Below are positions 23,200 through 26,219 of a DNA stretch of 64,000 bases, piece by piece (position 1 is the first letter of the stretch; every line of letters starts with the position of its first letter). The position numbers and the translations under genes were made by a program. The notes below the pieces were generated by a model. That model was not told where the DNA came from, searched no databases, and worked only from the letters and a program-made list of their open reading frames with translations. Source of the stretch: Candidatus Gastranaerophilales bacterium (GTDB taxonomy: Bacteria > Cyanobacteriota > Vampirovibrionia > Gastranaerophilales > Gastranaerophilaceae); contig CANRHZ010000004.1 of NCBI GenBank assembly GCA_947630535.1, positions 10,243 to 74,242 on the forward strand. Direction: 5' to 3'.

Positions 23200-23466
23200 A
23201 TGCCAATAAAAAAAATTCAAAATGTTTGTATGGAATTTTGGGGTTTGATAGAAAAAACAGAATTAAACAAAATAATTAAAGAGGCAAAAAGGTCTTGCGT
23301 AAATGATGCCCTAAAAAGACTCAAAGAATTTGACCCTATGAATGAAACTTTTTTTAAGTATGCCATGCCAAATGACACCCCAAATCTTCTGATTAAAAAA
23401 AGAGTAACAACAAACAAGCTTCTTTTAAAGAAAAGAGAAAAAGAGCTAAAAAAGCTATTAGGATAA
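23200..23466 (+). CDS. hypothetical basic protein (88 aa)
   Basis: ORF 10 nt after engB; Lys-rich C-terminus; no family recognised. Confidence 0.45.
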   Translation: MPIKKIQNVCMEFWGLIEKTELNKIIKEAKRSCVNDALKRLKEFDPMNETFFKYAMPNDTPNLLIKKRVTTNKLLLKKREKELKKLLG

Positions 23467-23496
23467 TAGACAAACTCAAAAGTTTAATGCTAAAAT
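23467..23496 (+). promoter_or_regulatory. sigma70-like promoter TAGACA-18nt-TAAAAT
   Basis: -35 TAGACA at 23467-23472 and -10 TAAAAT at 23491-23496. Predicted TSS near 23503, the first bases of the closing helix of the RNA below. Confidence 0.45.
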
Positions 23497-23501
23497 ATTA
23501 T

Positions 23502-23683
23502 TGCTTTATGCGGGTTTAAATTTTGTTCCTACATTTTACTAAAACGGGAGAGTAAGCTCTTAATAAAGGCAATTGAAGTATACCTTGGGCTTATTATAAG
23601 CTTTTTTAAAGGAAACGGATTTGCCGAGGCACTCACCCACCTGCCGGAGCTTGGCAGGTAACAAAATTCACCCGTATAGAGCA
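23502..23683 (+). ncRNA. ssrS: candidate 6S-like regulatory RNA (rod-shaped fold with central bubble)
   Basis: Hand-folded. 23502-23515 pairs with 23670-23683 (14 bp including 2 G.U). 23519-23527 pairs with 23660-23668 (9 bp). An open 18-nt A/U-rich strand at 23528-23545 lies opposite 23639-23659. 23546-23553 pairs with 23631-23638 (7 of 8). 23568-23572 pairs with 23621-23625. Apical hairpin at 23589-23601. The G.U pairs work only on the + strand. Confidence 0.45.
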
Positions 23684-23705
23684 CTATAAATAAAAAAGAG
23701 GAAGT

Positions 23706-24854
23706 ATGCCCTATAAATTTTTTATATCGCTTATCGTTATTATATTTACAATTATTCCTGCATTTGCAAAAAACGAAATAACATTTATTTACCTTAACGG
23801 CTCAAACACTAATACTCAAAACAGTAAGGAAGATTTTATTAAAGGAGTAAATAAACTCCATAACCAAATAATTCAAAACTTTGAATGCGACGCTTTTATA
23901 TACGGTTTTCTTCTTGAAGGAGGGAAATACAAAATAAATAAAACTCCAAATCCTTTTTATTGGGGGGATTTAAGCAAGGTTGAAATTGAACTTATAAAAA
24001 ACGATTTTGATTTTCTAAAACAAATAAGTCCAAAACCCGCAAACCATGTAAGAGAATTTATAGCACTCTGTTTGCATGATGCTATATGGGTATCAAAACA
24101 AGAAAATATGATGCCCATACTTGAAAATCTGCATAAAATCATAGTTGATGAATATAACAAAGGAAACAAAACCGCCCTTTTGGGATATAGTGCAGGAACT
24201 TTTATAGTCCACCAGTACATGTTTTTAAAAGTGCCCGTAATAAATTTAAAAGAAGCGATTTTAAGGTCAAATATAGAAAAAAAATACAAAGACTATGTTG
24301 CTGATATAAATATGGAAAACACATGCACAGATGCCCTTTTTAAAAACAGTCTGGTGAGATACGATATTGATAACAGATTTATATTTGAAGAAAATTTCAA
24401 CGACTACAAAACAAAAATCTCGAAGTTGAATGATGATACTAAAAAATACTGTGCTCCAAAAGATGCTCTTGTGGGCGGAATTAATTTTGCAAGCCCGTTT
24501 GCGCTTTTTTATAGCGACCTTTTTGATAAAGACTATAAAATGTCTGAAGAAATGGCGCTTGCATACAAATTCATAATTGAAAACAAACTTTTTTGGCTTA
24601 CCGTTAATTATTCTGATGACCCTTTGGGGTTCCCGCTTACAAGAAATGTTACATACAATGACATAAAAAACCTTACAAATCTTGAAATCAAAGACGGCGG
24701 GGGTTTTATATATGATAAATCAGACAAGCCTTCAAGAAGAACATTTTTGATGGCACATCTTTCATATTTTAATACCTCAAAAAGGTATGCAAAAATTCTC
24801 ACAGATGCTTTTATTGAAGGTTTTGAACACTTTTATATGACAAAAGAAGATTAA
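23706..24854 (+). CDS. secreted alpha/beta-hydrolase-like protein (putative lipase/esterase)
   Basis: N-terminal signal peptide (FFISLIVIIFTIIPAFA), nucleophile-elbow GxSxG (LLGYSAGTF), RBS AAGAGGAAG upstream. Confidence 0.6.
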   Translation: MPYKFFISLIVIIFTIIPAFAKNEITFIYLNGSNTNTQNSKEDFIKGVNKLHNQIIQNFECDAFIYGFLLEGGKYKINKTPNPFYWGDLSKVEIELIKNDFDFLKQISPKPANHVREFIALCLHDAIWVSKQENMMPILENLHKIIVDEYNKGNKTALLGYSAGTFIVHQYMFLKVPVINLKEAILRSNIEKKYKDYVADINMENTCTDALFKNSLVRYDIDNRFIFEENFNDYKTKISKLNDDTKKYCAPKDALVGGINFASPFALFYSDLFDKDYKMSEEMALAYKFIIENKLFWLTVNYSDDPLGFPLTRNVTYNDIKNLTNLEIKDGGGFIYDKSDKPSRRTFLMAHLSYFNTSKRYAKILTDAFIEGFEHFYMTKED

Positions 24855-24872: not shown

Positions 24873-26219
24873 ATGAAAGAAAACATAGAATTAAAAATCC
24901 ATAACATAAAAACAAAAGCGTACGAAACCCTTGAGAATGTGCCTTTATATAAGTATAAAGGAGTGGTTTCAAAACTTGTGGGCCTGACGGTTGATGTTAA
25001 ACTTCCGGGGCTTAAAATCGGGGATTTATGTTATATACAAACATATACCGGAGAAAAAAAGGCTGCGGAAGTTGTTGCTTTTAAAGGCGAGATGGCACAA
25101 CTTTTGCTTTTATATGACGGCGAAGGAATAGGACAGGGCTCTTTGGTTGAAACAACGGGAGGCCCCATTATGCTTCCTGTCGGAGATTTTTTACTCGGAA
25201 GGCTCATAAACCCTCTTGGTGAGCCTATGGATAGCCGCCCCTTAGATTTAGAGGGGGCAGAATATGTAAACATAAACGGAAGCGTTCCTGATGCATTCCA
25301 CAGACCCATTATTAAAGACACAATATTTACGGGAATAAGAGCAATAGACGGACTTTTGACTCTTGGCGGCGGACAGAGAATGGGGCTTTTTGCAGGTTCG
25401 GGGGTTGGAAAAAGTACAACCCTCGGCATGATAGCAAGAAACTCGGAAGCTGATGTTAATGTTATGGCCCTGATAGGAGAACGTGGGAGAGAAGTCAAGG
25501 AGTTTATGGTAAATTCTCTCGGGGAAGAAGGTATGAAAAAATCAGTGATAGTCTGTGCTACAGGCGACCTGCCCCCTCTTATCAGGATGAAATGCCTGCT
25601 TGCGGCAACAAGTGTGTGCGAATATTTCAGAGATAAAGGAAAAAAAGTTTTTCTTATGACAGACACGGTTACACGTTGTGCCATGGCAGGCCGTGAAGTG
25701 GGGCTATCAATCGGAGAACCCCCCACAATGAAGGGATATCCGCCATCAATATTTTCATGGCTTCAAAGAGCGCTTGAAAGAACGGGAAATTCCGAACGTG
25801 GTTCAATAACGGCACTTTATACCGTTCTTATGGAAGGGGATGACATAACAGACCCCATAGTAGACATTGTAAGAGGTATAGTTGACGGTCACATTTTCTT
25901 ATCAAGGAAAGTTGCGGAACAAAACCATTATCCCGCCATTGATGTTTTAGGTTCTGTTTCAAGGTTGTTTACAGAAATAACGGATAAAGAACATCAGGCG
26001 GCAGCATCCAAAATGCGTCAATTGATGGCCTTATATAGAGAGAATAAAGACCTTATTGATGTTGGCATGTACCAATCCGGTTCAAACCCAAAACTTGATA
26101 TTGCAATACAGTTAATGCCTGAAATTAACGCATTTTTACAACAGAAAGTTTCGGATAAAGTTACAATGGAAGGCACAATTCAGACTCTTAAAGATATGAT
26201 GAGGGATGTTAACATATAA
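24873..26219 (+). CDS. fliI: flagellar/type III secretion ATPase FliI/YscN family
   Basis: Walker A GSGVGKST, ALIGERGREVKEF, Walker B VFLMTDTVTR, GSITALYTVLMEGDD, HYPAIDVLGSVSR. 448 aa. Starts 18 nt after the hydrolase gene. Confidence 0.9.
   Translation: MKENIELKIHNIKTKAYETLENVPLYKYKGVVSKLVGLTVDVKLPGLKIGDLCYIQTYTGEKKAAEVVAFKGEMAQLLLLYDGEGIGQGSLVETTGGPIMLPVGDFLLGRLINPLGEPMDSRPLDLEGAEYVNINGSVPDAFHRPIIKDTIFTGIRAIDGLLTLGGGQRMGLFAGSGVGKSTTLGMIARNSEADVNVMALIGERGREVKEFMVNSLGEEGMKKSVIVCATGDLPPLIRMKCLLAATSVCEYFRDKGKKVFLMTDTVTRCAMAGREVGLSIGEPPTMKGYPPSIFSWLQRALERTGNSERGSITALYTVLMEGDDITDPIVDIVRGIVDGHIFLSRKVAEQNHYPAIDVLGSVSRLFTEITDKEHQAAASKMRQLMALYRENKDLIDVGMYQSGSNPKLDIAIQLMPEINAFLQQKVSDKVTMEGTIQTLKDMMRDVNI

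Follow-up and report, generated by a model that had tools for sequence, protein, structure and literature searches.

What does a gut-dwelling relative of the cyanobacteria encode in a 239-nucleotide (nt) gap between two protein genes? The gap lies on contig CANRHZ010000004.1 of a Candidatus Gastranaerophilales bacterium, a member of the Melainabacteria (Vampirovibrionia), in the 64,000-nt stretch of DNA that we analysed (the window), between an open reading frame (ORF) of 88 amino acids (aa; 23200-23466, plus strand) and one of 382 aa (23706-24854, plus strand). An earlier examination of the letters alone, here called the sequence-only reading, had folded the gap by hand into a long irregular rod and proposed a 6S-like RNA with its own promoter. 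That the gap holds a real gene for a structured RNA, of whatever kind, we consider practically certain. Further, with a probability of roughly 0.78, comparative modelling points to an ssrS-type gene at 23501-23684 (plus strand), which would encode a divergent, functional 6S-type RNA of the Gastranaerophilales.

23501-23684, plus strand: putative 6S-type RNA gene, 184 nt, as delimited by a match to the family covariance model R1

The rod is the structure that the sequence itself prefers. ViennaRNA folding of 23495-23690 on the plus strand returned it as both the minimum free energy (MFE) and the centroid structure, at -63.5 kcal/mol. Shuffled sequences averaged -41.65 (z = -5.25), none of 200 folding equally well, and the minus strand folded more poorly (-55.6 kcal/mol, z = -3.75). 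All of the helices drawn by hand, together with an 18-nt open strand, were found at the coordinates claimed for them, both in the letters and in the computed fold. The helix bordering the central bubble on its apical side calls for one amendment: its location was right, but it contains an A.A mismatch that had gone unmentioned. The parts of the RNA are as follows.

23502-23515 with 23670-23683, plus strand: closing (terminal) stem of 14 base pairs (bp), including the G.U pairs T23506-G23679 and G23510-T23675
23519-23527 (AAUUUUGUU) with 23660-23668, plus strand: helix P2 ("downstream duplex"), 9 bp
23528-23545, plus strand: 5′ strand of the central bubble, CCTACATTTTACTAAAAC, 18 nt, unpaired
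23546-23553 (GGGAGAGT; GGGAGAGU in RNA letters) with 23631-23638 (ACTCACCC; ACUCACCC in RNA letters), plus strand: G+C-rich helix bordering the bubble on the apical side, 7 bp and one A.A mismatch
23554-23630, plus strand: apical (internal) arm, long and irregular
23568-23572 (GGCAA) with 23621-23625 (UUGCC), plus strand: helix of the apical arm
23574-23584 (UGAAGUA.ACC) and 23609-23619 (AAGGAAACGGA), plus strand: invariant loop blocks of the apical arm
23589-23601, plus strand: apical hairpin, varying in sequence and length between species
23632-23639, plus strand: block CUCACCCA
23639-23659, plus strand: 3′ strand of the central bubble, with a 7-bp hairpin (ACCUGCC 23639-23645 / GGCAGGU 23653-23659)
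23660-23683, plus strand: 3′ strands of P2 (23660-23668) and of the closing stem (23670-23683)

To collect relatives of the locus, an alignment of the 382-aa protein family was run against a single genome from each species, which gave 80 loci (compared sequences are cited by L numbers where they must be told apart). Searches with blastn and nhmmer found the element in 15 of the 80, always directly upstream of the 382-aa gene. Across these 15 species the DNA of the element is 75-84% identical, while the adjoining 382-aa protein is just 39-62% identical. A non-coding stretch that is more conserved than its coding neighbour is strong evidence of function. The covariance model R1, built from 16 sequences and very narrow (effective sequence number 1.14), finds one copy in the window, scoring 190.5 bits on the plus strand against 18.4 bits on the minus strand, and one copy in each of the 15 loci; it has no match in the remaining 64 loci that carry the 382-aa gene.

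The element is also present outside this set. A pattern of two invariant blocks, searched in metagenome contigs, retrieved nine, of which eight hold full-length R1 matches (84-189 bits) and one a partial match. Four of the eight diverge clearly, and the RNA copies of L083 and L087, along with 45-nt flanks, are identical to that of L082. The window, the 15 species and five distinct metagenome variants together make a family of 21 sequences, 175-209 nt long.

Covariation within this family shows that the pairing has been maintained while the letters changed. In a MAFFT alignment of 16 sequences (A2), from which RNAalifold derives the same rod with 50 pairs, both partners have changed in 12 of the 50 pairs, and paired cells amount to 98.5%. 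None of 500 shuffles reached these values on any of five measures, and register-shifted controls gave 36-48% paired cells with one to three both-side-changed pairs. When the 21 sequences were aligned to R1 (A5), 21 of 50 pairs had changed on both sides and 97.5% of cells were paired (37-48% in register-shifted controls). The same 21 sequences treated with MAFFT and RNAalifold (A4), which is independent of model fitting, gave 18 compensatory pairs of 44. In A5 the changes extend through the closing stem (both partners differ in 10 of its 12 pairs), the GGCAA/UUGCC helix (all five) and the hairpin of the 3′ bubble strand (three of seven), whose innermost pair occurs as GC nine times, CG six times, UG five times and AU once. 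The sequence-only reading had named covariation in homologous regions as a check on its proposal, and the signal is strong in the alignments of 16 and of 21 sequences alike. Because the feature is conserved and covaries in related genomes, it lies far beyond chance.

Other parts of the rod hardly change at all. The eight modelled pairs of P2 (AUUUUGUU/AACAAAAU) are invariant in 21 of 21 members; positions 23519-23530 are invariant in A4, and 23519-23532 are nearly so in all 21. Six pairs of the GGG.GAG/CUC.CCC helix are likewise invariant throughout the family, the seventh showing UA to CG exchanges. The strictly invariant blocks are AAUUUUGUUCCU, GGGAGAG/CUCACCC, UGAAGUA.ACC and AAGGAAACGGA. 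Among relatives folded singly, the rod layout appears in 12 of 14, with the 5′ bubble strand unpaired except in L029 and L089; this strand is open in every consensus fold.

The RNA is preceded by what appears to be a promoter of its own. A scan of 23300-23900 found exactly one sigma-70-like site, at the place already proposed for it: TAGACA starting at 23467, a spacer of 18 nt and TAAAAT ending at 23496, with 10 of 12 matches.

23467-23472, plus strand: -35-like hexamer TAGACA (promoter scan), directly after the stop codon of the 88-aa ORF (23464-23466)
23488-23496, plus strand: extended -10 element TGcTAAAAT (promoter scan), with TG ahead of the -10 hexamer

No member of the family lacks the extended -10 motif, TGnTAnAAT (21 of 21). 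From its end to the closing stem, or to the first base of the model match, the distance is 4-5 nt, which would place transcription start at about 23502-23504. The -35 element is variable: it reads TAGACA, TGGACA, TCGACA or TTGATA in most close relatives, and is absent or degenerate in L004, L007, L008 and the divergent group. G.U pairs, from which the plus strand had been proposed as the transcribed one, are abundant in the consensus folds of both 16 and 21 sequences. They favour the plus strand, as do the promoter upstream of every member and the position of the terminators in L081 and L086. In these two loci a separate hairpin with a T-run lies directly downstream of the RNA on the same strand.

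The other end of the gene differs between relatives. The scan of 23300-23900 gave no terminator-like site in the window, as had been noted before, and no second promoter between the RNA and the 382-aa gene. Most relatives carry a U-tract right behind the closing stem; the window and L003 have neither a U-tract nor a terminator. Consequently, the suggestion that transcription reads through into the downstream genes holds up in part: in the window genome the RNA promoter probably does read into the 382-aa gene, but this arrangement does not extend to the family as a whole.

Is this RNA a 6S RNA? RF00013, the 6S family, is the top Rfam match for 23350-23800. It covers model positions 1-187 on the plus strand, from 23498 to 23688, at 19.9 bits (E = 0.054), and it is coterminous with the structure derived independently by covariation. 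The metagenome variant L082 reaches 26.6 bits and E = 0.00084 in a local search against all 4227 families, with the next family at E = 0.71. In the alignments to RF00013 the 18-nt open strand falls on the unpaired 5′ bubble of the model. The consensus blocks GGGag, GGAAaC, caCCCACCUg and GCAGGU are matched, the bubble-side helix (23546-23553/23631-23638) corresponding to GGGag and caCCC. 6S RNA is most conserved at the borders of its bubble, and it is there that the shared blocks sit.

The general properties of the element also agree with this assignment. 6S RNA is defined as a rod of about 200 nt in which a closing and an apical stem flank a central bubble (PMC8876501). The MFE structure, the consensus folds and the covariation all give a closing stem and an apical stem around a large central bubble. 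Judged by its sequence context, the element would also be a stand-alone gene of the size usual for 6S (about 180-200 nt), with members of 175-209 nt, a promoter of its own and varied gene contexts. The unpaired 18-nt 5′ bubble strand adjoins the invariant, A/U-rich P2 of 8-9 bp, a layout that in our structural model is compatible with the templating of short product RNAs (pRNAs); a conserved refolding helix induced by pRNA is not predicted. No Rfam match at E <= 10 to the RNA of the signal recognition particle (SRP RNA), Ms1, tmRNA, RNase P or other rod-like or abundant RNAs appeared in the local scans of the window and L082. In some loci (L050, L054 and others) a long gap precedes the 382-aa gene, and scans of these revealed no other 6S.

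Several results weigh against a 6S identity. The Rfam gathering score for RF00013 is 46.4 bits, and no family member attains it. At gathering thresholds the scan of the whole window was empty, and 29 related loci yielded only tRNAs. The four most divergent members have no RF00013 match even at E <= 10. R1 applied to E. coli ssrS (L090) yields just an 8.9-bit local hairpin, a weak test given that R1 is narrow and E. coli distant. Folding under the constraint of a pRNA hybrid produced neither a conserved extended hairpin of the E. coli kind nor a collapse helix of the B. subtilis kind; its sole effect was the loss of about 4.5-7 kcal/mol. Copy number and the search for a second 6S, finally, refer to the window and the related loci. 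Even so, RF00013 ranks first among the families, and its matches in the window and in L082 are full length and on the right strand. Because the scores fall under the 46.4-bit cut-off, standard annotation misses this RNA.

These points would suit a different kind of molecule: a structured small RNA (sRNA) specific to this lineage, resembling 6S by convergence or chance and acting on another target, perhaps by sponging up a protein or by regulating through base pairing. All 6S scores lie below the cut-off, divergent members lack a match, ssrS is missed by R1 and no pRNA-induced refolding helix is predicted. In addition, several blocks are invariant in sequence and not merely in pairing, which could reflect another partner. 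However, the one significant Rfam match is to 6S; it spans the full length, runs on the correct strand and shares its ends with a structure obtained independently; the common blocks lie at the bubble borders, and length and architecture fit the published definition (PMC8876501). Low scores are also familiar in this family, since recovery of 6S RNAs routinely needs lineage-specific models and relaxed thresholds, and general searches miss some of them (PMC8414754). We regard this alternative as unlikely. Two further alternatives, even taken jointly, seem improbable to us: a new, non-6S class of structured RNA confined to the Gastranaerophilales, whose strictly invariant blocks bind a partner other than the sigma-70 holoenzyme, or a 6S promoter that doubles, in one clade, as the promoter of the hydrolase/fliI operon.

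A second possibility arises from the company that the RNA keeps. In 16 species it is separated by 20-35 nt from the 382-aa gene that follows it on the same strand, even where the upstream neighbours differ, and in the window neither a terminator nor a second promoter intervenes. Such a position would suit a cis-acting 5′ leader, riboswitch-like or an attenuator, serving the 382-aa gene and fliI. Yet 64 of the 80 loci have the 382-aa gene without the RNA, most with just 50-140 nt or so upstream of it. The syntenic loci themselves fall into two groups that differ in both upstream and downstream genes, the RNA staying beside the 382-aa gene in each. Elsewhere it does without that gene altogether: in L081 and L086 the RNA is divergent to an adjoining PPIC-type rotamase (peptidyl-prolyl isomerase, PPIase) gene and has its own terminator, in L088 it follows a methyltransferase gene, and in L082, L083 and L087 it occupies a further unrelated context. 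A U-tract directly follows the closing stem in most syntenic copies, and an alternative terminator/antiterminator fold is not evident. The RNA thus occurs in at least four gene contexts; these varied contexts and the 64 loci without it argue for a stand-alone, trans-acting RNA gene and not a leader. Linkage to the 382-aa gene is not obligate (64 of 80 loci lack the RNA and five metagenome variants have it elsewhere), and we largely reject the leader, to which we give little chance.

Still less probable is a product of about 100 nt ending at the apical hairpin and the T6 run (23589-23607), which the sequence-only reading had offered as an alternative. A 5-bp hairpin followed by TTTTTT is indeed present in the window, and many close relatives have T-runs behind the apical hairpin, but the terminator scan is silent there and divergent members lack the hairpin and T arrangement. 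Conservation is equal in the 5′ and 3′ halves, and the two covary along the whole rod, which calls for the full-length RNA; as the main product, the short form finds no support. The chance of a miniature inverted-repeat transposable element (MITE) or other repeat, or of a small protein gene (a 51-aa ORF at 23529-23684 on the minus strand), is negligible: the closing stem does form long terminal inverted repeats, and either strand of the window stays open for about 50 codons, yet changes in one inverted repeat are compensated in the other, by way of G.U pairs. The covariance model, a 26-mer allowing three mismatches and an invariant 16-mer each find a single copy, and viral contigs contain none. 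The dispersed copies that would have marked a MITE are missing from the sequences scanned, the window having one copy and 21 loci one each, and a coding role is rejected by lengths (175-209 nt) that differ by non-multiples of three and by unconserved open stretches, the longest being 31-34 codons in L001 and L081.

If the 6S reading is correct, its mechanism can be sketched by analogy with known 6S RNAs. A stand-alone RNA of about 184 nt would be transcribed from its own extended -10 promoter of the sigma-70 type. As in the general 6S mechanism (PMC8876501), it would mimic an open promoter and, in the housekeeping holoenzyme, fill the active-site cleft of RNA polymerase. The part of a -10 element might fall to the invariant CUCACCC-A junction along with the 3′ bubble strand, and that of a -35 element to the invariant loop blocks of the apical arm (23574-23584 and 23609-23619). 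When nucleotides are plentiful, the polymerase would copy the 5′ strand of P2, together with the proximal part of the 5′ bubble strand (23519-23532), into a short pRNA. Were synthesis to start opposite C23532, the pRNA would read 5′-GUAGGAACAAAAUU; another candidate form complementary to 23519-23532 is 5′-AGGAACAAAAUU. Such synthesis would unzip the all-A/U P2 and release the polymerase. Because constraint folding gave no conserved new helix, we speculate that release may depend on the loss of P2 together with the hairpin already existing in the 3′ bubble strand. The same promoter would probably also read into the 382-aa gene and fliI, as that of ssrS does into fau in E. coli.

The genes around the RNA provide a second view of the locus.

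23706-24854, plus strand: downstream 382-aa gene, outside the RNA, starting 21 nt past its end

Directly after this gene comes fliI (24873-26219, plus strand). The 382-aa protein belongs to no Pfam family. It has 330 homologues, almost all from Gastranaerophilales/Melainabacteria; the named carriers among them are Candidatus Gastranaerophilales and Melainabacteria. A GYSAG motif and His and Asp residues are invariant and the N-terminus is hydrophobic; from its sequence it looks like a secreted serine-hydrolase-like family without a curated model. Between species in which the adjoining 382-aa protein is 57-62% identical, FliI is 88-93% identical (L001-L006 and L086 compared), and L005 and L006 have some 800-900 additional bases between the 382-aa gene and fliI. 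On the other side, the 88-aa ORF (23200-23466, plus strand) also has no Pfam family; it follows an EngB/YihA-like GTPase gene and is 47-65% identical in L002-L006. The second syntenic group has a conserved tRNA gene that lies upstream of the RNA gene, at a distance of about 1.8-2.2 kb, and runs in the opposite direction (L009 952-1025, L013 173-246, L015 2-75, L018 834-907 and L040 196-269, minus strand).

Some records in the comparison have features of their own. L002, L003, L011, L020, L043, L055, L058 and L068 are titled "uncultured Gammaproteobacteria", "Muribaculaceae", "Clostridium sp." or "Eubacteriales"; with a locus of the Gastranaerophilales type, such records are probably mislabelled metagenome-assembled genomes (MAGs). 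At 100-2700 of L082, overlapping chains of same-strand ORFs shift from frame to frame, which suggests indel errors of long-read metagenome assembly; stop-codon reassignment gave no clean resolution. The terminator of L081 (26-160) and L086 (1927-2027) draws weak Rfam matches on both strands (AgrB in L081; STnc370 and STnc240 in L086), and looks like a bidirectional one, common to the neighbouring gene. At E <= 10, the weak Rfam matches of the four most divergent members (STnc370, AgrB, RNAI and others) lie on terminator hairpins, and we took them as chance.

A 6S RNA is to be expected in almost every bacterium, and its presence here would be unsurprising. What is new is a divergent, sub-threshold subfamily of probable 6S type in an uncultured gut lineage, supported by covariation and by an alignment that can be put to use. 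6S RNA is regarded as nearly universal in bacteria (PMC8414754), and Rfam at its cut-off sees none (in the window and 29 loci) in these non-photosynthetic gut dwellers related to the cyanobacteria. Our literature search found no paper joining 6S RNA with Melainabacteria, and a survey from 2026, which covered the RNA structures of 202 genomes of cyanobacteria, leaves that lineage unmentioned (PMC12873609). The 21-sequence alignment and its model could be used to annotate the RNA gene across Gastranaerophilales MAGs and to extend the RF00013 seed, and the RNA could become a marker of abundance or activity in gut metatranscriptomes. Further, if the 6S promoter is also the promoter of the hydrolase/fliI operon, sequestration of polymerase would be coupled directly to flagellar export genes.

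Among named RNAs, Ms1 of the Actinobacteria offers one comparison. It is described as a 6S-like rod with a bubble that binds RNA polymerase (PMC9130861). Unlike a 6S RNA, it binds the core enzyme and not the holoenzyme; it is confined to Actinobacteria, and our RNA has no Rfam match to it. The 6S RNA of cyanobacteria (SsaA or 6Sa), the sister lineage of Melainabacteria, would be the expected orthologue, a likeness drawn from lineage; in photosynthetic cyanobacteria, 6S is recovered by Rfam (PMC12873609).

A further comparison is the ssrS gene of E. coli. Its RNA has 183 nt, compared with about 184 nt here, and it too is a stand-alone gene of the sigma-70 type placed shortly ahead of a co-oriented protein gene, in E. 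coli 75 nt before fau, which makes read-through possible. The consensus blocks GGGag, GGAAaC, CCCACCU and GCAGGU are common to E. coli ssrS/RF00013 and the Gastranaerophilales RNA. In contrast, the latter scores 19.9-26.6 bits against a cut-off of 46.4, and R1 fails to retrieve ssrS. The downstream gene in E. coli encodes 5-formyltetrahydrofolate cyclo-ligase, whereas here it encodes an unrelated, apparently secreted hydrolase-like protein. In E. coli 6S, the 3′ bubble strand is unstructured in the free RNA and forms a hairpin only after pRNA synthesis (PMC8876501).

In architecture, the RNA resembles 6S-1 (bsrA) of B. subtilis. Sequence kinship with it is undetectable beyond the weak RF00013 match, and the Gastranaerophilales RNA differs further in having no predicted "central bubble collapse helix" on the opening of P2, and in a P2 that is purely A/U-rich and invariant. 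Yet both are rods, of about 190-200 nt in 6S-1, built from a closing stem, P2, a central bubble and an apical arm, with the 5′ side of the bubble open. In free RNAs of the 6S-1 type, a hairpin of 5-7 bp is preformed in the 3′ bubble strand (PMC8876501); its counterpart here has 7 bp and covaries. The Gastranaerophilales RNA may thus represent a natural variant of the B. subtilis-type design, combining a preformed 3′ bubble hairpin and an all-A/U P2 with no obvious collapse helix. Without opening a new field, this variant would bear on how pRNA synthesis releases the polymerase.

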